Program-made: the position numbers and the translations under genes
NCBI GenBank assembly: GCA_044450645.1
Contig: JBIOJG010000012.1
Location: 36,566 to 100,565, forward strand
Direction of reading: 5' to 3'
Length of the DNA: 64,000 nucleotides
Source: Candidatus Binatia bacterium
GTDB lineage: Bacteria; Desulfobacterota; Binatia; HRBIN30
In this document: in pieces, positions 282-16,283 of the stretch
Position numbering within the stretch: position 1 is the first letter of the stretch
How the letters are laid out: each line of letters begins with the position of its first letter
The notes under the pieces: generated by a model
The model's input: the letters and a program-made list of their open reading frames with translations, nothing else
What the model was told of the DNA's origin: nothing
The model's database searches: none

Positions 282-297
282 GGAGTTGCGCCTCCAC

Positions 298-1238: not shown

Positions 1239-1561
1239 TGGCACCAGGCTCCGTCCGGTGCGGGAACCGCTTCCACCCTCGCCGTCGTCCGTTCCTGGAA
1301 GTGCTCACGGAGGAGGGGACCAGAGTGGGCGTCGTTATTCCCTCCTCGATGCCGGTTCGTAAGCGCGCAGGAAGCCCAGCTTCGCCATGTGCTTTAAGTC
1401 GGCGTGGCGGAACTCCCCAGACTCCAACCCTCGGACCCATAAGGCTGAGGCATCCTTATATCTTCCCGGCTGATTGAGGTTTTTCCCTCATAGTGCGGAT
1501 TTTCCCCCAGCCGCCAGAGGGTCTGACTCCTGGTTCTCGGGAACGGTAAAGGCGGGATTGG

Positions 1562-1577
1562 CGGCACGTAGTTTGCG
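1562..1577 (+). promoter_or_regulatory. Putative sigma-54 (-24/-12) promoter of the large cytochrome gene
   Basis: cGGCACGtagtTTGCg matches TGGCACG-N4-TTGCW with the exact GG-N10-GC spacing. It lies ~145 nt upstream of ATG 1720, and a bEBP gene fragment sits at the window start. Confidence 0.55.
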
Positions 1578-1719
1578 CCATGCCATCGCGGCAGGGCGGA
1601 ATTGCGTACTTTTCCACGACTGTCAGCGAAAGGATGGGGCGGCGAAAAGAGAACAGAGAACCGGGAACAGGGGACAGCAAGTAAGGAGGACTCATGACCG
1701 GAAGGAGGAATCAACAATC

Positions 1720-4700
1720 ATGAAAGGAAAGAGAAGGACACGATCTTGGGAAGCCCCGCTCGTAGCCGCGCTGTCTTTGGCTGCGTGCGTGGGGCTGAGT
1801 GCGAGTACCGCCTCGGCGAAATACCTATGGGACGGTGCCGTGCCGGATGGGATCGGCGGCTGGAAAGTGCCTCACGACGGCATCTGCATAGTCGGCGTGA
1901 AGGCCGACGGCACCTTGGTTGTCGATACGACCATAACCACCAAGAGAGACTGCGCCTATTACACGACTGGCCTGACGTCCATATCGATGGCCGATGTGAC
2001 CAGTTTAAGTGTATGCGGAAGCGGCGGGACGTCAGCGTGTAACAGCTCTACTAACTGCAAGAATACGAACATCAACAGCGGCGGCACCCTGACGTGGAAC
2101 GCAACCGACAGTAAGTGCTATGATTCTGCCCCCTGCACCATAGCCGGTGCGACCGGAAATGATGGCTCAAAGCACGCTTTGGCCACCAGTATTTGCGTGG
2201 ACGGTTCCGGCAACGGCAAGGGGTTGGCGGGCCTAGACCGGAGTGCTGCGATCTGCATCGCTAAAGGCTACAACTGGAAGCAGACATCGGCTACACCCCC
2301 TGCCGGAGTTTCCGGTACCTTCCCCACCGCTGGCTTCGGCGGCGCTTGCGCAGCTTACGGCTGGAACTACAGAGGCATTGATGGCACCGGCACGCCTTTG
2401 GCTTTTGATTCGACGCCAGGGACCGGCAAAGGCACAACCGCTGCTGCCAACACGGGCTTCTGTTACGCCAAGATTGACACGGGTTTGACAGCAGCAACGA
2501 CCTGTCCGTCCGTGGTCGGAAGTTCAGCGGGAACCAAGACCGCCAGTTCGAGTGCGGCTTTCGGCTACACCGCTGGCACCAGCGCCCCCTACTGCACCTA
2601 CGACTACGGGATCACGGGAAAAGCTGCCGCGGACATGTACACCGCAAACGGCACCAGGATCGTCAAGGGCACTGTTGTCGATTTCAGCGCTACTACCACC
2701 ATGGGAGATTGCTTCGCCAATGGTGGATCATGGGCCAACTGGGTCCGCAACAACGGGACAGGACTAGATCCTGTCGGAGGGACAGCTACCATCGCGACGT
2801 TCGATTTCACCACACAGGGTGTCGCCACGACGGAGGGCTGCCTCCACTGCCACACCTACACGGACCAGTACAACGGCCCTACCGAGAGATTCAAAGAAAG
2901 CTACCTGAAGACCGGCCACAAGAACATGCTGAGGAAGGTCACACCAGGTCAGCCCTGGGCGGGTCCTTGCGTAGCCGGCGACATCCCGAACGCGGATGGT
3001 CTGTGTGTCTACACCACCGACGGCACCAACACCATCAACTTCATGACCTCTTTGGATCCGTTCGCAAAGGCGACGGTCGCCGGCGTAGATCAGAACCTTT
3101 ACTACATTTACGGCGACTGGATGATACGGAATCCAAGTTTAGTATACGGTACTAACGGATACGGTTCTGCCCCAGGGGCCACCAACGGCTACTCCTGCTA
3201 CGCTTGCCATGCCACCGGCTCGAAGGACAGTTCTCTAACTTGTACCGTCAATCCATCAATTAACACTACCGCGGCGTTGTGTACGGCCGCCGGCGGAACA
3301 ATGACGGCTCCTGCTGTCCCCGGTGTGCAGTCAATCGGTACTCCCGGATACTCTGGGGTTCAGCCGCAGGCGTCATTCCCGGGCATCAGCATCAATGCAG
3401 CTAACCCGAAGTGGGACCTCGAGGGTATTACCTGCGGTCGTTGCCACAATGTCACGGTTCCGTCGGTGACACAGACGCAGATTTCGGGCGGTACTTGTAA
3501 GAATGGTGCAACCGATGTGACGTCATTTTACCCCACTCAGGCAGCTTGCACTGCGGCGACTTACACCTGGACCAGCATTGGTACAGCTTCGTCATTCCCA
3601 ACGACCGCTCCCACGAGCGGCGGCATGGGCGCCCTCGCGTCAGGCACCGGCAGGAACAACCTCTGCTTCGGCTGTCACCAGTCCATCGCGAAGCTCTGGC
3701 CGGCTGGAACGAATCAACTTGATCCCACGCTGATCCCGACCGGCGTCAGCCACGGCGCAGCGGCGGGCCGCGACTTCAACGGCCACGTGCTCGGCAACTC
3801 ATTCCTGAACAGCGTGCATGCGCAGTACGCCGGCGCACAAAGCGGCAACGGATCAATTACCATTAACTCACTTGGGAAGTACGACCTCACCGACCCTAAC
3901 GGAACCTCGGAGTATGGCAGCATCTTCAAAGGCTACACCTGCTGGCAGGGAACCACCAGCAACAGCCCGGGAAAGACCAAGCCGGATGGGACGGAAATAA
4001 AGACGAAGTCGGACTGCGAAAGCCTTTACGGCGCAGGTTCGTGGAGAGCCGATCAAGATGGTTCAACGGCTGCCACCTCAATACAGGGCACCTGCACCAC
4101 CTGCCACGATGTCCACAACAGCCTGTTTATCGATACCCAGCAAGAAGCGGCGCTGCGGAAGAAATGCGACGATTGCCACGTGAACAACAGCATCACCAGT
4201 GCAACCGACGCCGCCGCTCCACAGGTAAATCTGGCGACGATTGGCCATCCGACCGGAGGAGGGACGCCGTTCGATTCCACCAAGTATGAGAGTGCATGCG
4301 TAGTCTGCCATATGGCTACGCAGGCGGAGGCGAACGGAAATCAAACCTCCATGCCGGTGCATGTGTGGAGAATCAATACGAACGCGTCTTACAGCACATT
4401 CCCGACAACCGGTCAGTTCTATGGAGGCAGTTGCTCTGTTCATACTGGTGCAATCCAAAATGCTCCTGCTCTGCCGGTTGTATACCTGTCTGACACCTCC
4501 TCTGCGAATTGCACTGGGGCTTCGCCCGCCGGCATCTGGACAGCCGTGCCAAAAGACAGGAATGCTCAAGTCGCACCTGACGGTACGTATGCCAACGCAG
4601 TGTGGGTAGACCTCGATCTCGCATGCGGCCAGTGCCACGGCGGTTCGCTCGGTGCAGCCGCTACGGTGAACAACGCACCGTATCTGACCAAAGCCCAGCT

Positions 4701-5529
4701 GGCGACCTATGCTGCGGGCATTCACAACAACGGCCCGATATCTGTGAACTTCGGCTACTCGCTCGGTAGCCCCAATACGTTGGCCGTCACCGTGTACGCT
4801 GCTGCGGACTGCGGCGGCCCATGCGGCGCCTTCGATTGGGACTGGGGCGATGGCACCGCTCACGGCTCGGGTGCGAGCGCATCTCACATCTACGCAGGCG
4901 CTGGCATGTACGCGGTCACACTCACCGTAACAGGCAACGGTCAGAATGCCTCCAAGACCAAGAACGTGAACGTCTATACTCCTGACGATTCCCCGACCGT
5001 CAGCGGCACCGCGTGCGGGACCATTCTCAATGCCAACACGTGGAGCGCAAGCCTGACGGATACCTCATCGGACAATGAAGGCGTCAGCCACGTCACCGTG
5101 AACTGGGGCGACGGCAGCCTGCTCGCACAGGGCGCGCAGGGCGTGACCCTCACGCACACCTATAGGGGTCCGGGCACGTACACGATCACCCACAAGGCCC
5201 TGGACACCATCGGACAGCAGGCGGTCAGGACCTGCACGGTATCGGTGGCGTACTTCACCATCGGCGGGACGGTGCAGGCGCTCGATTCAACCCTGACCCC
5301 ACCGGCGACAGTCAATGTGCCGTCCGCAACCGTCACCGTGACGAACGCGGGCGGCGTGGTGGTTCGGAAGGTGTACACCGCCATCGACGGGACGTTCTCG
5401 GCCGGATCACTCAAGCCGGGCACGTACACACTGAGCGTCGCCAAAGGCGGCTACACGTTCCCTGCTGTGGCACCCATCACGGTCGGACCGAGTAGCACCA
5501 GTAACAGCGTGACCGGGACGAAACCGTAG
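1720..5529 (+). CDS. Large (1269 aa) secreted octahaem c-type cytochrome with a haem-free Cys-rich N-terminal region, two PKD-like domains and a CarboxypepD_reg-like C-terminal domain
   Basis: ATG 1720 is preceded by GGAGGA (1704-1709) and followed by signal peptide MKGKRRTRSWEAPLVAALSLAACVGLSASTASA. Eight CXXCH motifs (CLHCH, CYACH, CGRCH, CFGCH, CTTCH, CDDCH, CVVCH, CGQCH) lie between residues ~373 and ~973. PKD signatures are FDWDWGDGTAHG...YAGAGMYAVTLTVTG and VTVNWGDGS...HTYRGPGTYTITHKALD. The C-terminus reads VTVTNAGGVVVRKVYTAIDGTFSAGSLKPGTYTLSVAKGGYTF. Confidence 0.85.
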   Translation: MKGKRRTRSWEAPLVAALSLAACVGLSASTASAKYLWDGAVPDGIGGWKVPHDGICIVGVKADGTLVVDTTITTKRDCAYYTTGLTSISMADVTSLSVCGSGGTSACNSSTNCKNTNINSGGTLTWNATDSKCYDSAPCTIAGATGNDGSKHALATSICVDGSGNGKGLAGLDRSAAICIAKGYNWKQTSATPPAGVSGTFPTAGFGGACAAYGWNYRGIDGTGTPLAFDSTPGTGKGTTAAANTGFCYAKIDTGLTAATTCPSVVGSSAGTKTASSSAAFGYTAGTSAPYCTYDYGITGKAAADMYTANGTRIVKGTVVDFSATTTMGDCFANGGSWANWVRNNGTGLDPVGGTATIATFDFTTQGVATTEGCLHCHTYTDQYNGPTERFKESYLKTGHKNMLRKVTPGQPWAGPCVAGDIPNADGLCVYTTDGTNTINFMTSLDPFAKATVAGVDQNLYYIYGDWMIRNPSLVYGTNGYGSAPGATNGYSCYACHATGSKDSSLTCTVNPSINTTAALCTAAGGTMTAPAVPGVQSIGTPGYSGVQPQASFPGISINAANPKWDLEGITCGRCHNVTVPSVTQTQISGGTCKNGATDVTSFYPTQAACTAATYTWTSIGTASSFPTTAPTSGGMGALASGTGRNNLCFGCHQSIAKLWPAGTNQLDPTLIPTGVSHGAAAGRDFNGHVLGNSFLNSVHAQYAGAQSGNGSITINSLGKYDLTDPNGTSEYGSIFKGYTCWQGTTSNSPGKTKPDGTEIKTKSDCESLYGAGSWRADQDGSTAATSIQGTCTTCHDVHNSLFIDTQQEAALRKKCDDCHVNNSITSATDAAAPQVNLATIGHPTGGGTPFDSTKYESACVVCHMATQAEANGNQTSMPVHVWRINTNASYSTFPTTGQFYGGSCSVHTGAIQNAPALPVVYLSDTSSANCTGASPAGIWTAVPKDRNAQVAPDGTYANAVWVDLDLACGQCHGGSLGAAATVNNAPYLTKAQLATYAAGIHNNGPISVNFGYSLGSPNTLAVTVYAAADCGGPCGAFDWDWGDGTAHGSGASASHIYAGAGMYAVTLTVTGNGQNASKTKNVNVYTPDDSPTVSGTACGTILNANTWSASLTDTSSDNEGVSHVTVNWGDGSLLAQGAQGVTLTHTYRGPGTYTITHKALDTIGQQAVRTCTVSVAYFTIGGTVQALDSTLTPPATVNVPSATVTVTNAGGVVVRKVYTAIDGTFSAGSLKPGTYTLSVAKGGYTFPAVAPITVGPSSTSNSVTGTKP

Positions 5530-5541
5530 GCAGGCAAGGGG

Positions 5542-5565
5542 GGCAGGCGGGCCACGCCGCCTGCC
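5542..5565 (+). terminator. GC-rich hairpin after the large cytochrome gene (possible attenuator or processing site; no U-tract)
   Basis: GGCAGGCGG-gccacg-CCGCCTGCC forms a 9-bp perfect stem. It starts 13 nt after stop 5529. Confidence 0.3.
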
Positions 5566-5622
5566 TCCTCATGGAAGGGGAGAGATGGAGAAATGCGAAC
5601 CCACGAAACCATTGGAGGAAGA

Positions 5623-6454
5623 ATGAAACGACACGCCCAAGGGTTGGTGCTTGTTGCACTGGGACTGTCCCTTGCGTCCGCGGCCATGGCCTACACCGGC
5701 AGCGCGCCCGCTCCTGGCCAGGGAAATCAACGGAACGGTTCACGATCTTGGCACGGCCCACAACGGAATGAACTACACGGCGAATCCGGCGGATCCGCTG
5801 CAGCGGATCTGCATTTTCTGCCATGCGCCGCACAACACCTACAAGCTCAGCCCGGCCAACGGCGGTCCGGGAGCGGGTGTGGGCGGCGGCGTGCAAGCGC
5901 CGGATGCGTTTGATTACCTGCCCCTGTGGAACCATGAGCTGACCGGCAACTACGCGTCCTACACCATGTATCAGAACGGTCCGGGCGCACCGACCAAAGG
6001 CCCCAAGGCCTCGCAGGCCATCCTCAACGGCGACATGACGCCGGGCAGCACCTCGCTGCTGTGCCTGAGCTGTCATGACGGCAGCGTGGCCGTCAACTCG
6101 TACGGCAACAGCTCGCAGCTGTCGAAGAGCGGCGGCGGCGGCACGATCGGGGCACAATATATCATCGGCAAGGACAACTACCTCGGCAACCATCACCCCA
6201 TCGGATTCGATTATGACCAGGTGCAGGCGGTGGATACCGAGATTCGGTCCGCCGACACCGCCCTGCTCGGCACGGCCGGTACCGTCCGGGATCACCTGTT
6301 GGGCGTGGGCAACACGCGGATGGAGTGCGGCACCTGCCACGCGGTCCACAACAAGGGCAATACGGGTGAGACGCTGTTGTGGAGGAGCGACAGCGGCAGT
6401 CATCTCTGTCTGACCTGCCATGACAAGGGCATCGATCCCGGCGCGACTCCGTAA
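5623..6454 (+). pseudogene. Tetrahaem c-type cytochrome with an apparent +1 frameshift between signal peptide and mature domain (paralogue of 15330-16178)
   Basis: ATG 5623 (SD GGAGGA 5614-5619) encodes signal peptide MKRHAQGLVLVALGLSLASAAMAYTGSAPAPGQG in frame 1. The homologous mature part INGTVHDLGTAHNG...RICIFCH...LLCLSCH...MECGTCH...HLCLTCH continues in frame 2 (ORF 5651-6454), which has no signal peptide. The frames switch at ~5716-5730 (GGCCAGGGAAATC). Confidence 0.7.
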
Positions 6455-6476
6455 CGCCAGCCCTGTCTGAAACTCA

Positions 6477-6510
6477 GCGAGAGGGGAATGCTCATTCCCC
6501 TCTCGCTTTC
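6477..6510 (+). terminator. Rho-independent terminator after the tetrahaem cytochrome gene
   Basis: GCGAGAGGGGAATG-ct-CATTCCCCTCTCGC forms a 14-bp perfect inverted repeat followed by TTTC. It starts 23 nt after stop 6454. Confidence 0.65.
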
Positions 6511-6623
6511 CCCCCTGGTTCACTCTCCCCTTTGCCTCGCCTCCGCAAGATGGTAGGAATTTTCCAGCGCAGCCGGAATGGAACACACGCACTGCTGTCC
6601 ACTCGGGCTACCGGAGGGCGGGA

Positions 6624-7784
6624 ATGGCTAAAGATGAACAGCTTCTGGGCTTTGTGTGCGCGGCGCTGGTAGTTCTTGCAGCGGCCTGCTCCACACCTGT
6701 CCGGAAGAAGGAAGCTCCGGTATTCTTCCCGCCCCCGCCTGCCTCTGCCCGCATCGAGTATCTGACGTCCTTCAGCGGCCTGAAGGACATTGAGGAGCAA
6801 TCCTCGTTCAACCGGTTCGTCGTGGGTGAGAAACAAGATGTGAAGCTGGACAAGCCGTATGGCGTGACGGTCTATGACGGCAAGATCTACGTTTGCGATA
6901 CCAACGCCACGGTCGCTGTCTTGGATCTGAAGCGCAAGAGCTTTGGGGCGCTGAAAGGCGCAGTCGGTCCGGGAACGCTCCGTCAACCGATCAATATCAG
7001 CACCGAGCCGGATGGCACCAAATACGTGGCGGATCCCGTACGGGGCCAGATCGTCGCTTTCGACCGAAACGACGAGTATCTGAAAGCATACGGCCTGCCC
7101 GGAGCATGGAGACCCGTGGACGCTGTGGCGTTCGAAGACCGGCTGTATGTCGCTGACGTTGGAAACGGGCAGGTGAAGGTCTTTGACAAGCAGAGCGGTG
7201 AGACGGTCAAGACCATCGGTGACAAAGGGGATCCTTCCGAACGGCTCGACCGTCCGACGAATCTCGCGTTCGACCGCGAGGGATACCTCTACGTCACCGA
7301 CGTCGGACGGTTTCAGGTGGTCAAGTTCGACCGGGACGGTCATTTCAAAGCGACGTTTGGAAGGCCCGGAGACAACCTTGGACACTTCGCGCGACCCAAA
7401 GGAATCGCTCTCGATCGTGAAGGCCGTCTCTATGCGGTCGACGCTTCTTTCAACAACGTGCAGATCTTCAACAAAGACGGACGACTGCTCATGTTCTTCG
7501 GGGGAGAGCCTGACAAGCCGGGGGGCTTGCTGTTGCCCGCAAAGGTCGCGATTGACTACGACAACCTGCAGTACTTTCAGCAATACAGCCAGCCAGGTTT
7601 TCAAATGGAATACCTGGTTTTCGTCACCAGCCAGTTTGGCGACCGCCGGGTGAACGTGCTGGCGTACGGGCAGGAGAAGGGGAAGGTATATCCCACCGAT
7701 GCGGAACTCTTGAAACAGATAGAAGAGCGACGGAAGAAGGAGCTGGAAACCGCACCGCCGCAGGAGACAGCACCACCACAGTGA
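6624..7784 (+). CDS. NHL-repeat six-bladed beta-propeller protein, probable lipoprotein (NHL-1)
   Basis: SD GGAGGG lies at 6613-6618. The N-terminus ...ALVVLAAACSTP is lipobox-like. Repeated NHL blades include PYGVTVYDGKIYVCDTN, PINISTEPDGTKYVADPVRGQIVAFD, LYVADVGNGQVKVFD, PTNLAFDREGYLYVTDVGRFQVVKFDRDG and PKGIALDREGRLYAVDASFNNVQIFNKDG. Confidence 0.85.
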   Translation: MAKDEQLLGFVCAALVVLAAACSTPVRKKEAPVFFPPPPASARIEYLTSFSGLKDIEEQSSFNRFVVGEKQDVKLDKPYGVTVYDGKIYVCDTNATVAVLDLKRKSFGALKGAVGPGTLRQPINISTEPDGTKYVADPVRGQIVAFDRNDEYLKAYGLPGAWRPVDAVAFEDRLYVADVGNGQVKVFDKQSGETVKTIGDKGDPSERLDRPTNLAFDREGYLYVTDVGRFQVVKFDRDGHFKATFGRPGDNLGHFARPKGIALDREGRLYAVDASFNNVQIFNKDGRLLMFFGGEPDKPGGLLLPAKVAIDYDNLQYFQQYSQPGFQMEYLVFVTSQFGDRRVNVLAYGQEKGKVYPTDAELLKQIEERRKKELETAPPQETAPPQ

Positions 7785-7821
7785 ATCGCGGGGCGTCCGA
7801 GCAATCGCTTTGCGAATTCCA

Positions 7822-8364
7822 ATGAAGCTATGGGCGGTAGTGGCATGCGTCGGTGTTGCGGCGATGATGTCGATAGGCTGCTCTGCGAGGACACGCTACA
7901 CAGTCCTCTCGTTCTTCTTCGATGGGGTGCCGCCTCCCAGGGCGGCCGAAGCGCCGGCGGCAGCAGGAGAGCAGGTTGCGACCTCGGCGAATGCCGCGCG
8001 GCCGCGGCGGGTCGGATACCGGGAGCATGGTCCCTATGCGGCGAAACTGTGCAATGCCTGTCACGAATCTATAGCCACCAATGCGCTCGTGGCCCCGCGT
8101 GAGCAGCTGTGCATCCGATGCCATGAGTTCAAGAGCAACAAGAGATATATCCATGGTCCCCTCGCGTCGGGTGGTTGCACGGCCTGTCATGATCCCCACA
8201 GTTCTCAGTACCGCTATCTCCTGGTGTCCGAATCCGACAGCTTCTGTTTCCATTGTCACGACCGTCAAACCGTGGCGAGAGTCGGCGCCCATGGGGGCGT
8301 CGAAGAGCAGTGCACCGACTGTCACGATGCGCACATGTCTGACAAGAAATACTTGTTGAGATGA
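7822..8364 (+). CDS. Small pentahaem c-type cytochrome (c7/c3-like), probably periplasmic, possibly lipid-anchored
   Basis: The signal peptide is MKLWAVVACVGVAAMMSIGCS. Five CXXCH motifs are present (CNACH, CIRCH, CTACH, CFHCH, CTDCH). The stop overlaps the start of the next gene (ATGA at 8361-8364). An alternative TTG start lies at 7810. Confidence 0.85.
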   Translation: MKLWAVVACVGVAAMMSIGCSARTRYTVLSFFFDGVPPPRAAEAPAAAGEQVATSANAARPRRVGYREHGPYAAKLCNACHESIATNALVAPREQLCIRCHEFKSNKRYIHGPLASGGCTACHDPHSSQYRYLLVSESDSFCFHCHDRQTVARVGAHGGVEEQCTDCHDAHMSDKKYLLR

Positions 8365-10436
8365 GGGCGGGAGACCGTTTGCGCTCGAGGGTCCTGCTCA
8401 TGCTGTGTGTGGCTGTTGGCTTCGCTCGTTCATTCGCCTTTGCCGACTGGAGGGCCTTTGTCCCGAGGCAGTTTGAGAACGGGGCCTTCCTCGACACCTT
8501 CACCTCCTTCGAGCGGGATGATATCCGCAGCGGTGCGCAACCAGCTCGATGGCATGACATCTTCGTCAGGGAGAGACTCACCCTGTACTCGAACGGTTAC
8601 TCCTATGATCCCCGGTTTCTCCAGTACCAGTTGTCTGTCGCTGAGGCAGGGAAGCAGGAGGATTACGAGTCCTCTTCTCTCGGATCGCTAGGATGGAGGT
8701 ATGGGACGGGGCTGGAGTACGACGCCAAGCTGTTTTTCCTGCCCGAGCATCACTACAACCTGCAGTTGTATGATCGTCGGTACGAACCGTTGTTCAAGGA
8801 ACAAGCCGGCACGCAGCATGACAGCGTGGAAACCAGTCGCGGCGCTTCTTTCCGGTACCGCAAGAAACCGTACTTCCTGCACGCCAGCTACGGCAACGAT
8901 TCCATCGAGTCGGCGGAGTCTTCCTCTGACGTCACACGGTTCAACGTGGATGGCGAGTACTTCAAGCGATACACGAACGGGAACGAATTGTCTTTTAACG
9001 GCGCGTTCAATCCCTCGTGGTTCAGCACCTCCCAGGGACTCACGGGTGATTCGCGGGAATATCTATTCGGCAACTTCGTGAACCTACAGCGAGTGCGACT
9101 GAGCTCCAACGTGAACTACAACACGTTTGATCAGGAGAGCAACTCGTCGGGGACGTTCAAGAATGATCAGCTGGTGGCGTACGAGCTGCTGACCGCGTAT
9201 CTACCGCTGAGATTCAGGACCGATCTCTCTTACCGCTATCAGGACAACCAGAGCACGACTCCCGGTGCAGGTACCGGAACAAACCTCTCGCGGTCCGACA
9301 ATGGCAGGGATCTTCAGCTCGACGTCGCCCACAGACTCTACGAGAGCCTGGATACGACATACACGTTCTTGGACGGTTCACGGACGTCCTCCGGTGGCGA
9401 GACAACGACCCGGTCCCATTCGCTGGCGCTCGATTACACCAAGTCGATTCCGCGCGGCCGGATCCTGGTCGGGACGAACCTGGCTACAGGTGAGACGGAC
9501 AACAGCGGCCGCGTCGATCTCGTCAACGAGCCGTATTCAGCGACGCTTCCCGTGCCGGGATCCTTTCTCCTGCGCCAGCAGAACGTGGAACAGGGAAGCA
9601 TCAACGTGTTTCTCAAGTCTCCCCTGCCGCCATTCGAGACAATTTTTCTCGTGCAGGACGAGAACTACAAGGTGACGACAGTTGGAAACAGTACGGAGAT
9701 TTTTGACATTACTCTGCCCCAGCACTCTCCGCCATTTGATCCGATCGGGACCTACGATTTCCTTGTCTCCTATTCTGCCGCGGGAGACTTCGGGCTCCGA
9801 TCCGACACGTTCGGCGGCAATGCCAGTGTGGAACTGTTTGACAATCTACTCACTCCGTACTTCAGCTATGTTACGGTTCGATCGAAGGTGTTGTCCGGGG
9901 TCTTTCCGGGGATTCCTGTCGATTCCACGACCTATACCACGGGCCTGATTGTCAACTTCGGGGTGGTGCGGATGCGGGGAGAGTACCAGGAGCTACAGTG
10001 GGAGGTCAGCCCGTACCGGTCCTGGAGAGCGGAGGTCCAATACGTGCAACCCCTCAATGCGACCACCAGCGCGTACGCTACGGCTTCCTACCTGAACAAG
10101 TATTATCCTCGCGGCACATCCCTCGAACCCTCGGCGGCATATACGGAAGAGACGGAGTCGGCTGCCGCCAACATTCAAAAGCAGCTCTTCTCGCGGAGCA
10201 TGTTTCTGTCCGCAGGCGGCTCTTACTCGCGGATGCAAGGGCTAGTCGATGCCAACGCGTATGCGTTAAATGCGTCCTTGAACTGGACCATAGGAAAGGT
10301 GAGCCTTAGCGTCGGAGCGAGCGCCTATGAGTCCGACACGGCAGGAACGACTACTGTCACGACAGGAACGACTACCGTTTCGACCCGACGTGACCATGAA
10401 TTGGTTTTCGTCAACCTCCGGCGGCGACTCTTTTAG
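8361..10436 (+). CDS. Putative large outer-membrane beta-barrel (porin-like partner of the cytochromes), 691 aa
   Basis: The signal peptide ends ...VAVGFARSFAFA/DW. There are no haem motifs. Composition is Ser/Thr/Tyr/Asn/Gly-rich with alternating hydrophobic residues. The C-terminus ...HELVFVNLRRRLF ends in Phe like an OMP beta-signal. The gene is translationally coupled to the pentahaem cytochrome gene. Confidence 0.6.
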   Translation: MRAGDRLRSRVLLMLCVAVGFARSFAFADWRAFVPRQFENGAFLDTFTSFERDDIRSGAQPARWHDIFVRERLTLYSNGYSYDPRFLQYQLSVAEAGKQEDYESSSLGSLGWRYGTGLEYDAKLFFLPEHHYNLQLYDRRYEPLFKEQAGTQHDSVETSRGASFRYRKKPYFLHASYGNDSIESAESSSDVTRFNVDGEYFKRYTNGNELSFNGAFNPSWFSTSQGLTGDSREYLFGNFVNLQRVRLSSNVNYNTFDQESNSSGTFKNDQLVAYELLTAYLPLRFRTDLSYRYQDNQSTTPGAGTGTNLSRSDNGRDLQLDVAHRLYESLDTTYTFLDGSRTSSGGETTTRSHSLALDYTKSIPRGRILVGTNLATGETDNSGRVDLVNEPYSATLPVPGSFLLRQQNVEQGSINVFLKSPLPPFETIFLVQDENYKVTTVGNSTEIFDITLPQHSPPFDPIGTYDFLVSYSAAGDFGLRSDTFGGNASVELFDNLLTPYFSYVTVRSKVLSGVFPGIPVDSTTYTTGLIVNFGVVRMRGEYQELQWEVSPYRSWRAEVQYVQPLNATTSAYATASYLNKYYPRGTSLEPSAAYTEETESAAANIQKQLFSRSMFLSAGGSYSRMQGLVDANAYALNASLNWTIGKVSLSVGASAYESDTAGTTTVTTGTTTVSTRRDHELVFVNLRRRLF

Positions 10437-10469
10437 GGTGCGGCTCGTTGCGATGAGGCAGACAACGCC

Positions 10470-11543
10470 GTGATGACCCCTATCGATCGCAAGTGCAAGA
10501 ACAGACGGCGGACGGTACTCCTCTTCACGCTCGTTTTCCTCGTCTCCGGTTGCGCCACGAAGTGGATGCTGCGGACGGCGCAGCCCGACATCGCCCTTCA
10601 ATGGCCGTACCAGCCGAACAAGGCCAAATTGACCTACGTCCGATCCCTGACCGGACTCGCGCACAACACGGACTCCGGTTCGGTACTGAGAGCCATCGTC
10701 TTCGGCAATGAGGAGAAAGACCGCAATGCCTTCGTCCTGCCGGTGGCCGTGGCAACCGGAAACGATGGACGCATCGCCGTTGCCGACATGGGGCGCAGGT
10801 GCGTCCATCTCTACATTCCTGGCCAGCAGCGCTACATGCTGCTGTCCGGTTCGGAACAGGAACCGGTCAGGTCGCCCGTTGGGCTGATCTTCGATGAGGA
10901 CTTGAAACTCTATCTTTCCGACTCGTCGGGAACAGTGTTTGCCTTCGGCGCGGACGGCGCGCTGCTCTTCACCCTGCAACAAGCCGGCGCGGATAGGCTC
11001 CAGCGGCCGACCGGTGTGGCGTACAGCTCCCGAACGAAGTTGCTCTACGTCGTGGATACGCTTGCCAACAAGGTCCATGCGTTCGGGACGAACGGCGCCT
11101 TTGCCTTCTCTTTTGGTGAGAGAGGGGACGCCCAAGGCCGCTTCAATTTTCCCACGCACATCTTCCGGTCCCCTTCCGGAGAACTCTACGTGACGGATGC
11201 ACTCAACTTCAGGGTCGAGATCTTCGACGAGCAGGGGAAAGTGCTGGGGTCCTTTGGTCATCACGGCGACGGCTCTGGTGATCTGGCGATGCCCAAGGGG
11301 GTGGCGGTGGACAAGGACGGCATCGTGTATGTAGTGGACGGCATTTTCGACAATGTCCAGCTCTTCAACCGGCAGGGAGACTTCCTCCTGACGCTCGGCA
11401 AGAGAGGCGTTGACTTCGGCGAATTCTGGCTCCCCTCGGCGGCCTTCATTAGTGACAATGATGAACTCTATGTGTGCGACACGTACAATCGACGCATCCA
11501 GGTCTTTCGCATCGCGGAGCGGTATGCCGACGGTACATCCTGA
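10470..11543 (+). CDS. NHL-repeat beta-propeller lipoprotein (NHL-2)
   Basis: The lipobox is FTLVFLVSGC/ATK. NHL blades include LYVVDTLANKVHAFGTNG, LYVTDALNFRVEIFDEQGKVL, PKGVAVDKDGIVYVVDGIFDNVQLFNRQG and LYVCDTYNRRIQVFR. Confidence 0.85.
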   Translation: MMTPIDRKCKNRRRTVLLFTLVFLVSGCATKWMLRTAQPDIALQWPYQPNKAKLTYVRSLTGLAHNTDSGSVLRAIVFGNEEKDRNAFVLPVAVATGNDGRIAVADMGRRCVHLYIPGQQRYMLLSGSEQEPVRSPVGLIFDEDLKLYLSDSSGTVFAFGADGALLFTLQQAGADRLQRPTGVAYSSRTKLLYVVDTLANKVHAFGTNGAFAFSFGERGDAQGRFNFPTHIFRSPSGELYVTDALNFRVEIFDEQGKVLGSFGHHGDGSGDLAMPKGVAVDKDGIVYVVDGIFDNVQLFNRQGDFLLTLGKRGVDFGEFWLPSAAFISDNDELYVCDTYNRRIQVFRIAERYADGTS

Positions 11544-11577
11544 GCGCAAAACCCTGGCCCCAGCTCGGAGGTCGACA

Positions 11578-13539
11578 ATGCGGAAAGCAACCGGCCGGAC
11601 GGGTGTTGGGGCAGGGGTTGTTTTTGTACGGGCGGTGGTGGGCGTCTACCTGCTCGGTTGCGGGCTGGTATTTCCAATCGAGGCGCAGACACCGGCGGAC
11701 ATGGTCAACACCAAGCACAACCTGTCAGTATCGGGCCCGGGACCGATCCGGGCGCTGACGGAAACCCGGATCTGCGTCTTCTGTCACACACCGCACAATG
11801 CGACGCCACTCTCGCCCCTGTGGAACAAGGAGATCGAGCCGCAGGTCTATACGGTGTATACAAGCCCTACGTTGAAGGCGGGTCCGCTTCAACAGCCCTC
11901 GGGCCCGACGAAGCTCTGCCTCAGCTGTCATGACGGCACCATTGCCATGGGTGCGGTTGTCAATCCGGTCGAGGGAATCGGCATGGCAGGCAGCGACGCG
12001 CTGCCTCTAGGAAGCCTCTCGAGTTTTGGTCTGGACCTATCGGGGCATCACCCGGTTTCGTTTTCCTATTCGGATGCTTTGCCCAATGCCGAGTTGGCCG
12101 CATCGCCGCCTCCCGATCTCGTTTACGGGGGCATCGATGAGGTTCACTGCATCACCTGTCACGATCCCCACAACGACCGGTACGGCAAGTTTTTGGTGAA
12201 GGACAATCGCTACTCCGCACTCTGTATCACGTGCCATCAGATGACCGGATGGAGCAACTCGGCGCATGCGACTTCGACGGCACCGGTGGGCGGGATTTTG
12301 CCCCGGCCTCCGAAGACGTGGCCCACGTACACGCAGTTGAATGAGTGGGGATGCGAGGTGTGCCATACACCCCACTTCGCACCGACCGCCGAACAGTTAC
12401 TGAACTTCACTGCCGCGCCGCCGGCTCCGTTCTCGTGTACCAGCGCAGGTTGTCATACTTCCACGCCGACCCAGCCTCACGCCGGGACCGCTCTCGCCGC
12501 GGCGCAAATCGGGGCGGTTACAGGTTCTCCTGCCGGAAGGGTGGACATCGCTCGCCAAACGCAAAAGATCTCCGCGCACCACGAACCCCTCGGCACCATC
12601 CCGCTGTCACAACGCATACCAGGAGGAGCGGCCCGTTCCGGAATTCGCAGTGTCACCTGCACGGATTGCCATAATCCTCACCTCACCAGTGACAGGAAAG
12701 TCAAGGCACCCTCCGCCTCGGGCCTGCTGCGGGGAGTGAGCGGCGTCGACCGGAATGGCGTGGAGATCCGTTCGATAACATACGAGTATGAGGTTTGTTT
12801 CAAGTGCCACGGCGACAACACTCCGGACCTGAACTACGTTCCCCGCGTCCTCAGCGTCACCAATACGCGGCGGGCCTTCGATACCGCCAATCCCTCGTAC
12901 CACCCAGTCATCGGCATGGGAAAGAACCTCAACATCCCGAGCATTCCGTCGCGTTTCGAGCCCAACATGAGCCCATCCGTGGTGATCTATTGCACGACCT
13001 GCCACGCCGATGACGAGGGCGGCTCGAGAGGACCCCATGGTTCGTCGTTTCCTCCGATCCTGAAGGAACGCTACGAAACGGCGGACAACACACCGGAGCG
13101 TTATGACAACTACGCGCTCTGCTACCGCTGCCATGACCGGTCCAGCATCAACAACGACAGAAGCTTCAAGACGACGATGGGGAAAGGCGGCCACAGCGGA
13201 CATCTGAAGGCAAATGCCCCCTGTTCCGCATGTCATGATCCGCACGGAGTGAATGCCGCCGTGGGATCGCCCTCAACCGGGGACCACACGCATCTCATCA
13301 ACTTCGATACGCGAATCGTCTCGCCCGGGACGAAGAGTTACCCGACGTTCACGGACAAAGGGATAATATTCTCAGGGAGCTGCAATCTGTGTTGTCATAG
13401 TGTGCTCCATGACGACGGTGCATGCGGCTCCGCCGGCGCGCTCAAAACAACCCGAGCGCCACAGGTCGGCGGAGCACCACAGACGGCCGGAGCGCCGACC
13501 TTGTGTTCAGGCTCGCCGGTGTGCGGTTCGTACCCGTGA
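11578..13539 (+). CDS. Multihaem c-type cytochrome: 10 CXXCH plus one CX4CH and one CX3CH; possible lipoprotein
   Basis: ATG 11578 follows GGAGG (11567-11571). The N-terminus ...VGVYLLGCG is lipobox-like. Motifs are CVFCH, CLSCH, CITCH, CITCH, CEVCH, CTSAGCH, CTDCH, CFKCH, CTTCH, CYRCH, CSACH and CNLCCH. The N-terminal signature is HNLSVSGPG...RICVFCHTPHNA...PLWN...LCLSCHDGT. Confidence 0.85.
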   Translation: MRKATGRTGVGAGVVFVRAVVGVYLLGCGLVFPIEAQTPADMVNTKHNLSVSGPGPIRALTETRICVFCHTPHNATPLSPLWNKEIEPQVYTVYTSPTLKAGPLQQPSGPTKLCLSCHDGTIAMGAVVNPVEGIGMAGSDALPLGSLSSFGLDLSGHHPVSFSYSDALPNAELAASPPPDLVYGGIDEVHCITCHDPHNDRYGKFLVKDNRYSALCITCHQMTGWSNSAHATSTAPVGGILPRPPKTWPTYTQLNEWGCEVCHTPHFAPTAEQLLNFTAAPPAPFSCTSAGCHTSTPTQPHAGTALAAAQIGAVTGSPAGRVDIARQTQKISAHHEPLGTIPLSQRIPGGAARSGIRSVTCTDCHNPHLTSDRKVKAPSASGLLRGVSGVDRNGVEIRSITYEYEVCFKCHGDNTPDLNYVPRVLSVTNTRRAFDTANPSYHPVIGMGKNLNIPSIPSRFEPNMSPSVVIYCTTCHADDEGGSRGPHGSSFPPILKERYETADNTPERYDNYALCYRCHDRSSINNDRSFKTTMGKGGHSGHLKANAPCSACHDPHGVNAAVGSPSTGDHTHLINFDTRIVSPGTKSYPTFTDKGIIFSGSCNLCCHSVLHDDGACGSAGALKTTRAPQVGGAPQTAGAPTLCSGSPVCGSYP

Positions 13540-13580
13540 CGGATTTCTGCAACCACAGACGCGCAGAGAAGGATCGGTAC

Positions 13581-14903
13581 ATGAATCAGAAGAACTTCCC
13601 AACTTGCCTCGTGTTTGCTCTGCTCCTGGCGAGCGGGCTATTGCTGACCGGCGGTGCCGCGATGGCGGAAGAGGGCTGCGTTTCCGACAAGTGCCACGCG
13701 ACGCTGTTGAAGGCCAGTACCGTCCATCCCGTTGCTGAAGGCTGCGACAGCTGTCACGAGTCCGTGGCGACGCCGCATCCGCAAAAGGGAAAGAAGACCT
13801 TCAAGCTCACGCAGGACCCGCCGGATCTCTGTTTTACCTGCCATGATCACGATGCATTTGCGAAGAGCGATGTTCATCCGCCGGTTCAGTCCGGGATGTG
13901 CACGACGTGCCATAACCCGCATGCCTCGAATCAGCCTAAACTGCTGGCGCAGCCGCTGAAGGATCTCTGCCAGACCTGTCATGCCGATCACGTAGACTTT
14001 AAAGTCGTCCACGGTCCGGTCTCCGCCGGAGACTGCACGGTGTGCCACAGCCCGCACGCGACCGACACCAAGAAGCTGCTGCTGAAGGAGCCCCCAGACC
14101 TCTGTTTCGGCTGTCATCTCGATATGCCGGAAACGTTGCAGAAGAAGCACGTGCATCCGGCGTTGGCCGGCGGCTGCACGTCGTGCCACAACCCGCATGG
14201 CTCCGACTACCCGAAGATGCTGGCTCAGGAGGGCCAAGATCTCTGTTTTCTCTGTCATCCGCAGATGGCGGACAAGGTGAAGGATTCGCCGGTGGGCCAT
14301 CCGGCCCTCCTCATGGAGAAGGGCTGCGCCACGTGCCATTCGCCGCACGCCAGCGACAACGAGAAGATGCTGCTGAACCCGGTAAAGGACACCTGTATCA
14401 CTTGTCACGACTCCATCATCCCGAAGAATGCGACCGTGTTGCATGGCCCCAACAACGACGGAAAGTGCACGCGTTGTCACGACCCGCACGGCAGCCAGAA
14501 CGAAACACTCTTGGTCGCGAAGTTCCCTACGGAGGTGTACGTTCCGTACACCGACACGGAGTTCGCACTATGCTTCAGCTGTCACAAGCGCGATCTGCTC
14601 CAGTATCCGCAGACCTCTTTCGCAACGAACTTCAGAGATGGGGAGAGAAACCTGCACTTTCTGCACGTCCACAACCAGCAAAAGGCGCGGAGCTGCAAAT
14701 TATGTCACAGCGTTCACGGCAGCAGCAATCCGAAGCTGATCGCGGAGAGCGTGCCGTTCGGGAAATGGAATCTTCCCTTGAAGTTCGTGAAGACCGAGAC
14801 GGGCGGAGGGTGCTCGCCGGGATGTCACAAGCCGCAGTACTACGACCGAAAGACTCCAGGCAAGAAACCCGAAGCACCGAAATCTACCGCAAAGAGCGAT
14901 TGA
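13581..14903 (+). CDS. Periplasmic-type multihaem cytochrome built from c7-like repeats: 13 CXXCH plus CX4CH and CX3CH
   Basis: The signal peptide is MNQKNFPTCLVFALLLASGLLLTGGAAMA. Motifs are CVSDKCH, then CDSCH, CFTCH, CTTCH, CQTCH, CTVCH, CFGCH, CTSCH, CFLCH, CATCH, CITCH, CTRCH, CFSCH, CKLCH, then CSPGCH. The unit DLCxxCH...VH(G/P)P...G.C..CH.PH.S...K(L/M)L occurs about five times. Confidence 0.85.
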   Translation: MNQKNFPTCLVFALLLASGLLLTGGAAMAEEGCVSDKCHATLLKASTVHPVAEGCDSCHESVATPHPQKGKKTFKLTQDPPDLCFTCHDHDAFAKSDVHPPVQSGMCTTCHNPHASNQPKLLAQPLKDLCQTCHADHVDFKVVHGPVSAGDCTVCHSPHATDTKKLLLKEPPDLCFGCHLDMPETLQKKHVHPALAGGCTSCHNPHGSDYPKMLAQEGQDLCFLCHPQMADKVKDSPVGHPALLMEKGCATCHSPHASDNEKMLLNPVKDTCITCHDSIIPKNATVLHGPNNDGKCTRCHDPHGSQNETLLVAKFPTEVYVPYTDTEFALCFSCHKRDLLQYPQTSFATNFRDGERNLHFLHVHNQQKARSCKLCHSVHGSSNPKLIAESVPFGKWNLPLKFVKTETGGGCSPGCHKPQYYDRKTPGKKPEAPKSTAKSD

Positions 14904-14998
14904 TTGCAGGGAAGGTTTTCTGCGTCTCTTCGCCCCGTGGCGTGTCGCGCTGAGTCTACCCGACCCAATGACGTCGCCGGGGCCGTAGCCGCAACGGA

Positions 14999-15039
14999 GT
15001 CGCATTGGCGCATTTGCCACATGCGAGTTAGCTAGCTAA
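14999..15039. promoter_or_regulatory. Two adjacent dyad-symmetric elements (candidate enhancer/UAS for the downstream sigma-54 promoter)
   Basis: TCGCAT-TGGC-gcattt-GCCA-c-ATGCGA (14999-15026) is followed by the perfect 12-nt AT-rich palindrome TTAGCTAGCTAA (15028-15039). Both lie ~200-240 nt upstream of the -24/-12 element at 15242. Confidence 0.25.
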
Positions 15040-15241
15040 ACGCCTTCCCAGCAGTCGGAGCCGAACCGCCGCCGCGCCTTCGCTCCGCCCGTCTGCCATT
15101 CTCATCGGTACAGCCATTCTGCATCGTCTGTACACCTGCGCGGTATCGCCTGAGCACAAGCCCGGTTTTCGCCAAAAACGCGATGTGGCGACAGGTCACC
15201 CGTCGGCACCATCGTTCAGGTGCTCGGCGCAGTCACCTTCC

Positions 15242-15257
15242 TGGCACATCCGTTGCC
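15242..15257 (+). promoter_or_regulatory. Sigma-54 (-24/-12) promoter of the tetrahaem cytochrome gene
   Basis: TGGCACatccgTTGCc is a full match to TGGCAC-N5-TTGC. It lies 73 nt upstream of ATG 15330. Confidence 0.65.
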
Positions 15258-15329
15258 CTGGTTATGGGCAAGCGGGATCGCATGCGGACGGTTCACTCTG
15301 CCGCATCGAAGTCACAGGAGGTGATATTG

Positions 15330-16178
15330 ATGAACGCCGCAACGAGAGTGCAGTTACTGGCTGCGTTCGCATGGTTGACGTTGATGACGTCACCTGCCTG
15401 GGCACGTGGCAGGGCAGGCTCGGGCTTGGCCGGCAGCGCGCATGATTTCGCCAACCCGGCACACGGCGTCTACCAAAGCGATGGCAACGCCGATAGATGC
15501 ATCTTCTGTCACGTCGGAGGCAACGGTTCTACGGCTGGCGGCCGAGCGCAGTGGAACGATGGGTGGACAACACCGGCCGCAGCCTGGAATACGAGGAACC
15601 GGACCGGTGGCCCGCAGGCGCCGGAGACCCTCGACTCCCTGCCGCTATGGAACCATGAGCTCACCGCCAGCTACGCGTCCTACGCGATGTACCAGAACGG
15701 CCCCGGCGCACCGCAGAAAGGCGCCAAGGCCTCACAGGCCATTCAAAACGGCATGACCCCGGGCAGTACTTCTCTGCTCTGCCTCAGTTGTCACGACGGC
15801 AGCGCGGCGATCAACTCCGGCAATGCCTCCCAGCTGACCAGGTTTCAGGACAGCGGCAGTGTGACGTTCGGTGCGTCGTACGTCATCGGCAGGGACAACT
15901 ACCTCGGAAACCACCACCCCATCGGGTTCGATTATGATGCGGTGCGGGCGGGGGACAAAGAAGTCCGCTCCCCGGATACCGCGCGGATGGGCACGGCCGG
16001 TACCGTCAGGGACCACCTCTATGGACCGGGGAGCACCCGGATGGAATGCGGAACCTGTCATTCCGTGCATAACACGGGCAACACGGGCGAAGCCTTGCTC
16101 TGGCGCAGTGACGCACGCAGTCGGCTCTGCCTCACCTGCCACGACAAGGGCACCGACCCCGTCGCCATGACGCCGTAA
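15330..16178 (+). CDS. Secreted tetrahaem c-type cytochrome (intact paralogue of 5623-6454)
   Basis: SD AGGAGG lies at 15316-15321. The signal peptide is MNAATRVQLLAAFAWLTLMTSPAWA. Four CXXCH motifs are present (CIFCH, CLSCH, CGTCH, CLTCH). Long blocks are shared with the paralogue: LPLWNHELT.SYASY.MYQNGPGAP.KG.KASQAI and DNYLGNHHPIGFDYD...GTAGTVRDHL...TRMECGTCH.VHN.GNTGE.LLWRSD. Confidence 0.85.
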   Translation: MNAATRVQLLAAFAWLTLMTSPAWARGRAGSGLAGSAHDFANPAHGVYQSDGNADRCIFCHVGGNGSTAGGRAQWNDGWTTPAAAWNTRNRTGGPQAPETLDSLPLWNHELTASYASYAMYQNGPGAPQKGAKASQAIQNGMTPGSTSLLCLSCHDGSAAINSGNASQLTRFQDSGSVTFGASYVIGRDNYLGNHHPIGFDYDAVRAGDKEVRSPDTARMGTAGTVRDHLYGPGSTRMECGTCHSVHNTGNTGEALLWRSDARSRLCLTCHDKGTDPVAMTP

Positions 16179-16250
16179 CCTCAGACCGACATACGCTCAG
16201 CCAGAAGGATGGCGACATTCGAAGTAGAGACACAACTTGTGATGTAAATC

Positions 16251-16283
16251 GGCGGGCGCGCTGTGTCCATGATCGCGCCCGCC
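16251..16283. terminator. Hairpin between convergent genes (possible bidirectional terminator)
   Basis: GGCGGGCGCG-13 nt-CGCGCCCGCC forms a 10-bp perfect stem. It lies between stop 16178 (+) and stop 16322 (-). Confidence 0.45.

Follow-up and report, generated by a model that had tools for sequence, protein, structure and literature searches.

We analyzed a 64,000-nucleotide stretch of DNA (hereafter the window) from an uncultured Candidatus Binatia bacterium (assembly GCA_044450645.1, contig JBIOJG010000012.1), in which genes for multihaem c-type cytochromes alternate with genes for NHL beta-propeller lipoproteins and a large outer-membrane barrel. We interpret this region, with a probability of about 0.7, as an OmcE-type extracellular electron-transfer gene cluster that is related to the OmcE nanowire cluster of Geobacter. 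Its core is a self-contained and conserved eight-gene cassette at positions 1720-14903, which encodes a 1269-amino-acid (aa) cytochrome with PKD domains (cyt1269), an OmcE-like tetrahaem cytochrome (tetA), a first propeller (NHL1), a pentahaem cytochrome (penta), the barrel, a second propeller (NHL2) and two further cytochromes of 653 and 440 aa (cyt653 and cyt440). Downstream of the cassette lie a spare tetrahaem gene (tetB) and a degenerate second module consisting of a probable barrel remnant, a third propeller gene (NHL3) and the gene of a 618-aa cytochrome, cyt618 (Table 1). The key to the locus is that four of its seven cytochromes, judged by homology, hold a complete OmcE-like tetrahaem module, a feature that the initial annotation of this DNA had overlooked.

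OmcE-like tetrahaem modules

Searches against all PDB sequences with phmmer matched both free tetrahaem proteins and the N-terminal parts of two larger cytochromes to 7tfs_A, the OmcE filament of G. sulfurreducens, with E-values of 6e-17 for tetA, 2e-13 for tetB, 8e-25 for cyt653 (residues 22-221 against OmcE residues 6-231) and 8e-26 for cyt618 (residues 7-201 against OmcE residues 6-230). The alignments of the two fused modules span OmcE from about residue 6 to its C-terminal end, and those of tetA and tetB consist of two stretches that jointly cover most of it. A second structure, 9yuq_N, which matches the 'Desulfuromonas soudanensis' protein P0124 and which we take to be the OmcE bundle that Petersen et al. 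(bioRxiv 10.1101/2025.10.22.684050) describe from D. soudanensis, was matched by tetA (3e-12), cyt653 (2e-24) and the N-module of cyt618, and was left unmatched by tetB. According to Petersen et al. (bioRxiv 10.1101/2025.10.22.684050), OmcE homologues conserve four CXXCH motifs and further haem-ligand histidines; in our joint alignments, the four motifs and four further haem-ligand histidines were invariant in tetA and in the N-modules of cyt653 and cyt618.

The two free tetrahaem proteins are 67% identical to each other. The distal histidine after haem motif 1 is missing from tetB, which reads CIFCHVGGN where all other aligned members of the OmcE family read C..CH.PHN, and one tetB haem may have a different ligand. 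An insert of tetB is also longer by about 25 residues. In a correction to the initial annotation, the tetA gene proved to be frameshifted: its signal peptide lies in the frame of ATG 5623 and its mature part in the frame of 5627-6454, because of one extra base in a GGGAAA run at 5721-5726. The same site is intact in four tetA orthologues, and the extra base is either a homopolymer error of sequencing or assembly or the mark of a real pseudogene.

Conservation of the eight-gene cassette

A scan of one genome per species, with gene order mapped by tblastn, yielded 33 loci, representing at least three phyla, from Ca. Binatia, Acidobacteriota (Thermoanaerobaculia and Terriglobia), Nitrospirota and some loosely labelled metagenome-assembled genomes (MAGs). 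As far as the contigs reach, all 33 follow a single order, PKD-cytochrome/tetA/NHL1/penta/barrel/NHL2/cyt653/cyt440, the exceptions being an inverted cyt440 in about 10 loci (mostly Thermoanaerobaculia and other Acidobacteriota) and the inversion of the first two genes in one locus (L022). The linkage of NHL genes to cytochrome and barrel genes, on which the initial annotation had placed weight, was therefore found in all 33 loci, to the extent that their contigs cover these genes. Mean identity to the window proteins was 68% for NHL1, the most conserved protein of the cassette, 66% for tetA, 64% for both cyt653 and cyt440, 62% for NHL2, 58% for penta and 48% for the barrel, so that the propellers and the OmcE-like subunit are the most constrained parts. 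A tetA-type gene stood beside an NHL gene in nearly every locus, with 61-85% identity, and no orthologues of NHL3, cyt618 or tetB were found in the 33 loci.

Clustering of the open reading frames (ORFs) in the flanks of these loci revealed only one recurrent family, an Lcl_C-domain protein that lies beside the cassette in eight of them. In agreement with the initial annotation, no inner-membrane quinol dehydrogenase was detected: cytochromes of the NapC, CymA, ImcH or CbcL type were absent from the 64-kb window, and neither such an enzyme nor any other inner-membrane partner recurred in the flanks of the 33 loci. In Thermoanaerobaculia loci (L017, 16538-19096; L019, 14953-17454; L026; L030), the inverted cyt440 is followed by an extra cytochrome of 830-1000 aa with 10 CXXCH motifs, which is missing from the Binatia-type loci.

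NHL propellers and their pairing with OmcE modules

The three NHL proteins, rightly annotated as paralogues, matched the Pfam NHL family with E-values between 1e-15 and 5e-32 and are 31-38% identical among themselves, with NHL3 being a 38% identical paralogue of NHL2. NHL1 matched both NHL (1e-15) and DUF5128, NHL2 matched NHL at 6e-21, and the lipobox cysteine is conserved among the orthologues of each, in NHL2 as LVSGC. In the window, the three NHL genes form abutting pairs with OmcE-module genes, namely tetA with NHL1, NHL2 with cyt653 and NHL3 with cyt618, and every locus examined, L034, L035, L036, L037 and L038 included, has an NHL gene that directly adjoins one encoding a full OmcE module. 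The earlier statement that a propeller accompanies each module of the locus is better put as each NHL gene abutting the gene of an OmcE-like module. In L036 (8629-10654), the NHL-OmcE pair is found next to cell-division genes, and the 20-kb locus contains neither a barrel gene nor another cytochrome gene, which suggests a propeller-OmcE pair as the smallest unit of linkage.

A signal peptide (...AAAVPALA|AEP) and matches to Pfam FKBP_C (3e-30) and FKBP_N (2e-13) bear out the annotation of a secreted FKBP-type peptidyl-prolyl isomerase (PPIase) upstream of the cassette; its match to the NCBIfam FkpA-type family NF008150 (6e-46) fell below the cut-off. The proposal that it is a companion of the locus fared less well, its linkage being weak: among the 33 loci, an FKBP gene adjoins the cassette only in L006, in addition to the window.

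Comparison with the omcE clusters of Desulfuromonadia

OmcE sequences were rebuilt from PDB alignments, and G. sulfurreducens OmcE was found in the protein collection and its locus (L034) fetched. In this locus, purHDE, resB and ccsB are followed by genes for two cytochromes with 9 and 8 haems, an NHL lipoprotein, OmcE itself, an unannotated protein of 752 aa and glycosyltransferases. In BLASTP comparisons its NHL lipoprotein was 30% identical to NHL1 (over 305 aa, 2e-35), 30% to NHL2 (3e-41) and 32% to NHL3 (1e-42), its 9-haem cytochrome was 40% identical to cyt440 (over 308 aa, 3e-71), and OmcE was 30-31% identical to tetA and tetB and 32-35% to the N-domains of cyt653 and cyt618. Two minimal metagenomic clusters of the Desulfuromonadia type (L037 and L038) have the arrangement cytA (11 haems)-NHL-cytB (8 haems)-NHL-OmcE-barrel (750 aa), which is the pattern of Petersen et al. 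The cytA protein of L037 is 37% identical to cyt440 (2e-83), while the similarity of the second cytochrome, cytB, is limited to the level of repeats. The OmcE and NHL proteins of both minimal clusters are closer to the N-domains of cyt653 and cyt618 and to NHL2 and NHL3 than to tetA and tetB and to NHL1.

The window therefore resembles the omcE clusters of G. sulfurreducens (GSU0618 region) and D. soudanensis in combining an OmcE-type tetrahaem protein, two propeller lipoproteins, multihaem cytochromes of which one is MtrA-like, and a large barrel. However, its gene order is permuted and its barrel belongs to another family, being unrelated to the 750-aa barrel of the Geobacter omcE cluster by BLASTP, profile-sequence and profile-profile comparisons; the hhalign probability of a 32-sequence profile of the window barrel was 0.6% against the Geobacter barrel and 1% against a 27-sequence Geobacter-type profile. 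In cyt653, an OmcE module is fused to six to eight more haems, an architecture without counterpart in L034 and L037. Moreover, the window adds the 1269-aa PKD octahaem protein and the pentahaem lipoprotein, and it lacks both the purHDE/resB/ccsB...ffh context and the glycosylation island. OmcE homologues have been described from five phyla, with Binatota and Acidobacteriota not among them, and omcE operons are noted to encode no candidate for a tip, base or initiator (Petersen et al., bioRxiv 10.1101/2025.10.22.684050).

The barrel and the larger cytochromes

The 691-aa barrel protein returned no Pfam or NCBIfam match, including none to the MtrB_PioB family and none in Pfam to a TonB-receptor plug family. 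It has >200 close relatives, none of which carries a Pfam domain or a name, and an exhaustive profile search placed 1086 representative proteins in the family at E<=1e-3 and 208 at 1e-30, mostly of 660-700 aa. An AlphaFold2 (AF2) model based on a 32-sequence alignment (mean predicted local distance difference test score (pLDDT) of 85) was all-beta, with about 28-30 long strands and an insert at around residues 400-460. The best Foldseek match in the PDB was MtrB (6r2q_B; E 1e-8, template modelling (TM) score 0.43-0.45, 9% identity), followed by other large outer-membrane barrels. Together with a signal peptidase I (SPI) signal (...FA|DW) and a C-terminus reading ...RRRLF, the model fits the outer-membrane barrel that had been annotated, and no soluble or non-barrel structure was predicted.

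The relationship to Mtr and Pcc conduits drawn by the initial annotation held for the type of locus, a porin-cytochrome-type outer-membrane locus, and not for the genes onto which it had been mapped. That annotation had cast penta as the small periplasmic cytochrome and the 12-motif cyt653 as the lipoprotein multihaem cytochrome. On the evidence of its sequence matches, the MtrA/DmsE-like protein of the locus is cyt440, and not penta: cyt440 matched 6r2q_A, the MtrA chain of the Mtr complex, at 1e-10 and the NCBIfam family TIGR03508 at 2e-40 (139 bits, below the 192-bit cut-off), and it has 13 + 2 haem motifs, not 10. The penta protein (Pfam Paired_CXXCH_1, 1e-24) is instead a lipoprotein, with a lipobox (...GC) whose cysteine is kept in 31 orthologues. 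In many Binatia-type loci this cysteine is followed by Asp, where Ser, Asn or Thr stands in the window and in other loci. Asp at this position would, under the E. coli rule, signal retention in the inner membrane, and the membrane in which penta resides is therefore uncertain.

Conversely, the lipobox-like LLGC of cyt653 is not conserved among 27 orthologues, which instead share an SPI site (..A|QT..DMVNTKHNL), and a lipoprotein nature was rejected for this cytochrome. Cleavage at the conserved site puts the mature N-terminus a few residues before the His of TKHNL, as in OmcE. The C-terminal part of cyt653 contains a region resembling MtrC domain II/IV (PF22113, residues 403-556, 2e-11, 44 bits), and the OmcA/MtrC-type family TIGR03507 was not among its reported NCBIfam matches. 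The cyt618 protein is a paralogue of cyt653 (38% identity over 614 aa).

For cyt1269, the annotated PKD domains were recovered by Pfam (two domains, PKD_4 1e-14) together with a C-terminal CarboxypepD_reg-like domain (CarboxypepD_reg 3e-7), and matches in the PDB were limited to the PKD domains. Its eight CXXCH motifs lie at residues 374-969, and orthologues of about 1100-1350 aa with seven or eight CXXCH motifs occupy the same position in most loci. A lipoprotein nature was rejected here too, the cysteine in the signal peptide being unconserved. Across orthologues, SPI sites were found in cyt1269, tetA, the barrel, cyt653 and cyt440.

Relation to other described systems

The locus had been called non-standard, a description that does not hold because OmcE- and EET1-like clusters form a class that has already been described. 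In May 2026, Fiorito et al. (bioRxiv 10.64898/2026.05.27.727921) reported from 49 Acidobacteriota MAGs a core named 'EET1', transcribed in peat Acidobacteriota, in which the gene of a porin resembling MtrB is joined by those of an NHL/DUF5128 'scaffold' and of a cytochrome with 13 motifs that matches 7tfs. The EET1 porin matched 6R2Q with a Foldseek TM score of 0.48, 8.5% identity and an E-value of 9e-9 (bioRxiv 10.64898/2026.05.27.727921), statistics nearly identical to those of the window barrel against MtrB. The same order, barrel-NHL2-cyt653, is present in the window and in the 33 loci, including MAGs of Terriglobia and Thermoanaerobaculia, and EET1, matched here by description rather than by sequence, very probably corresponds to this part of the cassette. 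However, EET1 is described as a three-gene core with an SPI-exported scaffold, whereas the cassette is a conserved unit of eight genes with a lipobox on both NHL proteins and on penta, a free OmcE-like gene, an MtrA-like cytochrome and a Binatia-like host.

Found in Ca. Tenderia electrophaga and some Gallionella, the Uet cluster, which includes the PPIase UetB and the NHL proteins UetH/I (PMC9900912; bioRxiv 10.1101/2022.05.06.490989), has the same component classes as the window when compared by description, with a tetrahaem UetA, UetB, a 28-strand barrel UetC, UetH/I and an extracellular cytochrome of 11-12 haems, the undecahaem UetJ. It differs in three trihaem c7 proteins, the cupredoxin UetF and ccsAB/nrfG/bat, none of which was found among the scanned window ORFs, in its PPIase, which is not a conserved cassette member in loci of the window type, and in its proposed direction, which is uptake. 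In G. sulfurreducens, the osc (omcS companion) operon likewise encodes a filament cytochrome together with proteins proposed to act in folding (OscH) and secretion (OscE/F/G), according to the summary in PMC13194489 of Shen et al. (2025); OmcS itself is a hexahaem protein without sequence similarity to OmcE. The parallels that the initial annotation had drawn with the omcS region and with Gallionellaceae have counterparts in the literature, in the osc operon and in Uet with its PPIase and NHL proteins.

Compared with Shewanella MtrCAB (6r2q), the window shares the barrel fold of MtrB, the MtrA/DmsE likeness of cyt440 and the MtrC domain II/IV-like region of cyt653, but its barrel has no MtrB_PioB match, its MtrA-like protein has 13-15 haem motifs instead of 10 and scores below the TIGR03508 cut-off, and its surface cytochrome bears an OmcE module and is no lipoprotein; Mtr, for its part, has no NHL partners. 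Interleaving of cytochrome and NHL genes, expressed under conditions relevant to extracellular electron transfer, is also seen in Desulfovibrio ferrophilus (DFE_0448-0451 and DFE_0461-0465) and in the occ cluster of Ca. Dechloromonas occultata. In D. ferrophilus, whose multihaem clusters contain NHL genes, the NHL proteins have been proposed to scaffold an outer-membrane cytochrome complex (PMC5815863); these clusters, likened to the window by description, have no apparent porin, unlike the window.

Proposed electron path and alternative readings

Under the OmcE-type reading, electrons would arrive from unlinked inner-membrane and periplasmic carriers, none of which is encoded in the locus, and would pass to cyt440, which may sit inside the barrel of about 28-30 strands as MtrA does in MtrB, a placement suggested by its homology and by the barrel model. 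At the cell surface, cyt440 would contact cyt653, whose MtrC-like C-terminal part could extend the haem chain and present the OmcE-like N-module outward. The OmcE-like tetrahaem protein, given its homology to a filament subunit, might then polymerise or dock on this haem chain and carry electrons off the cell. The adjacency of their genes points to the NHL lipoproteins as putative dedicated partners of the OmcE modules, acting as chaperone, usher or anchor, and FKBP might conceivably aid the folding of the proline- and coil-rich cassette proteins. It is a tentative and rather doubtful extension of this scheme that proteins of the cyt653 class serve as the base or adaptor that joins an OmcE-type filament to an Mtr-like conduit, with NHL proteins as one-to-one assembly partners of the OmcE modules; UetJ and the '13-haem' protein of EET1 may belong to the same class.

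Several observations weigh against the OmcE-type reading. By sequence, the barrel is related neither to its counterpart in the Geobacter omcE cluster nor to Pfam MtrB_PioB, so that its role is assigned by fold and position only. The OmcE proteins of Geobacter and Desulfuromonas are more similar to the N-domains of cyt653 and cyt618 (30-35%) than to tetA and tetB (26-31%), which makes the free tetrahaem protein the more diverged copy, and in this genome tetA is frameshifted and tetB lacks one distal histidine. Filament formation by tetA would be an extrapolation for a cassette known here from its genes alone. The AF2 model of mature tetA, a haem-free monomer predicted from a 36-sequence OmcE-family alignment, reached a pLDDT of only 48.8; Foldseek found no PDB match for this model, which is too poor to be informative, and coil-rich folds like that of OmcE are known to return no matches in fold searches (PMC9473688). 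The physiological importance of the OmcE and OmcS filaments of Geobacter is itself disputed (PMC11077965, PMC13194489).

The main rival reading is a plain Mtr-like conduit without a polymer, in which cyt440 occupies the barrel, cyt653, tetA and cyt1269 are monomeric surface cytochromes and the NHL proteins are static scaffolds that stabilise the cytochrome complex of the outer membrane. Such a conduit accords with the MtrB-like fold of the barrel, the MtrA likeness of cyt440 and the MtrC-like region of cyt653, as well as with the scaffold reading of NHL proteins in PMC5815863 and in the supplement of bioRxiv 10.64898/2026.05.27.727921, and the closest OmcE relatives, being fused into large cytochromes, cannot polymerise in the manner of OmcE at both ends. 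Nevertheless, we consider it unlikely, as it leaves aside the free OmcE-like protein that retains its full set of histidines and its place beside an NHL gene in nearly every locus, and the occurrence of the same NHL-OmcE pairing in organisms with solved OmcE filaments (7tfs, 9yuq).

The direction of electron flow, whether the reduction of minerals or humics or uptake, cannot be read from the sequence. Inward flow from extracellular donors (Fe(II) minerals, cathodes or reduced humics), as proposed for Uet, is somewhat unlikely. The list of components resembles that of Uet, cyt618 has an undecahaem complement of CXXCH motifs, and multihaem conduits can carry electrons both ways (White et al. 2013, cited in PMC9473688). 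Against it, the parts specific to Uet (trihaem c7 proteins, UetF and ccsAB/nrfG/bat) are not in the window, where a single small monohaem cytochrome c is all that might bear on terminal oxidases or carbon fixation. A very improbable alternative takes the NHL proteins as periplasmic enzymes of the lactonase, arylesterase or ScyF type, with the cytochromes as redox partners and the barrel importing the substrate. Their weak matches to SGL, Arylesterase and ScyF in Pfam and NCBIfam all fell below the curated cut-offs and reflect a shared propeller fold only, and we rejected an enzymatic role for this reason. The NHL proteins are, moreover, lipoproteins without a catalytic family assignment and homologues of the NHL partner of Geobacter OmcE, and the barrel shows no match to a TonB-receptor plug.

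Implications for cytochrome nanowires

Electromicrobiology has yet to settle by what means cytochrome nanowires are exported and anchored and how electrons reach them (PMC12307469; bioRxiv 10.1101/2025.10.22.684050). Clusters of this kind are already known, and the core has appeared in a preprint. What our analysis adds is the full eight-gene unit, the homology of its NHL and MtrA-like proteins to those of the Geobacter omcE cluster together with the exchange of one barrel family for another, the identification of both cassette propellers (NHL1 and NHL2) and of the pentahaem protein as lipoproteins, the rule that NHL genes adjoin OmcE-module genes, and the fused cytochrome as a candidate adaptor. 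OmcE modules, NHL lipoproteins and the MtrA-like cytochrome travel together beyond the Desulfuromonadia, in Binatota, Acidobacteriota and Nitrospirota. An unrelated barrel has been swapped in, while the NHL and OmcE-like proteins are kept at 60-70% identity across phyla, which argues for the propeller-OmcE pair, and not the porin, as the conserved functional core, and cyt653 offers a concrete candidate for the junction between wire and conduit. The host lineages are those of soil, peat and the subsurface, in which carbon turnover could be influenced by organisms that respire humics or minerals outside the cell.

Gene inventory and surroundings of the cassette

A motif count on the ORFs reproduced the numbers of the initial annotation: the seven cytochrome c genes carry 8, 4, 5, 10, 13, 4 and 11 CXXCH motifs (55 in total) and five extra CX3CH or CX4CH motifs, none of which overlaps a CXXCH. 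Of these variants, cyt653 has CNLCCH and CTSAGCH, cyt440 has CSPGCH and CVSDKCH, and cyt618 has CTLTCH; no further multihaem ORF was present in the whole 64-kb window. The short or overlapping junctions annotated for 6624-14903 were also seen; they range from -4 to 41 nt, with gaps of 34-41 nt and an ATGA overlap of the penta stop and the barrel start at 8361-8364. The bounds given to the locus (1562-16178) needed correction, as no gene starts at 1562, the ORF of cyt1269 beginning at ATG 1720 behind AAGGAGG, and as the FKBP gene lies outside them. A scan of positions 1-20000 for promoters and terminators found as many of them as expected from shuffling, or fewer, and hence gave no operon boundaries.

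Table 1. Genes of the cytochrome region, with coordinates in the window
Feature	Coordinates	Strand	Remarks
FKBP, periplasmic FkpA-like peptidyl-prolyl isomerase	298..1116	+	272 aa, ATG 298
cyt1269, secreted PKD octahaem cytochrome	1720..5529	+	8 CXXCH; cassette gene 1
tetA, OmcE-like tetrahaem cytochrome, frameshifted	5623..6454	+	4 CXXCH
NHL1, six-bladed NHL beta-propeller lipoprotein	6624..7784	+	next to tetA
penta, pentahaem lipoprotein cytochrome, paired-CXXCH type	7822..8364	+	likely start ATG 7822
Outer-membrane beta-barrel, 691 aa, uncharacterised family	8361..10436	+	AF2 model
NHL2, NHL beta-propeller lipoprotein	10473..11543	+	next to cyt653
cyt653, secreted 12-motif cytochrome with OmcE-like N-module	11578..13539	+	10 CXXCH + CX3CH + CX4CH
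cyt440, periplasmic MtrA/DmsE-like cytochrome, 15 motifs	13581..14903	+	13 CXXCH + 2 variants
tetB, second OmcE-like tetrahaem cytochrome, intact	15330..16178	+	4 CXXCH
Secreted Lcl_C-domain protein	16322..16969	-	Pfam Lcl_C 2e-23; start MHAIIL
Orphan 210-aa beta-strand-rich ORF	17772..18404	+	abuts NHL3; ends ...IRRF
NHL3, third NHL beta-propeller lipoprotein	18405..19463	+	Pfam NHL 5e-32
cyt618, cytochrome with OmcE-like N-module	19460..21316	+	11 CXXCH + 1 CX3CH

Downstream of the cassette, the ORF at 17772-18404, previously read as a partial second barrel, is an orphan fragment. It is coding-like, with a third-position GC content (GC3) of 0.74, has no signal peptide and no upstream continuation in any frame, and shows no significant similarity to the 691-aa barrel or to the barrel profile; judging from its strand-rich sequence, it is probably what is left of the C-terminal end of a second barrel.

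Apart from housekeeping genes, the remainder of the window encodes one monohaem cytochrome c and a 722-aa HdrD/GlpC-like protein (41768-43936), in which a 4Fe-4S dicluster accompanies two CCG domains. The latter lies 20 kb from the cytochromes, and neither it nor the small cytochrome c (36304-36765, minus strand) is linked to the cassette. Directly after cyt618, an ABC lipid-transport operon of the MlaD/MlaF/MlaE type (21324-23897, minus strand) probably represents unrelated outer-membrane housekeeping. A PMT_2 (GT39/83-like) membrane glycosyltransferase is encoded at 25981-27792, about 4.6 kb past the cytochrome region, any tie to the cassette being conjectural; for comparison, the omcE clusters of Geobacter precede GT2/4/39 genes, and OmcE is glycosylated there. 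The Lcl_C protein carries a dockerin/EF-hand-like DFNGDGKVTVDE motif and, given that homologues adjoin the cassette in eight related loci, may be an accessory adhesin.

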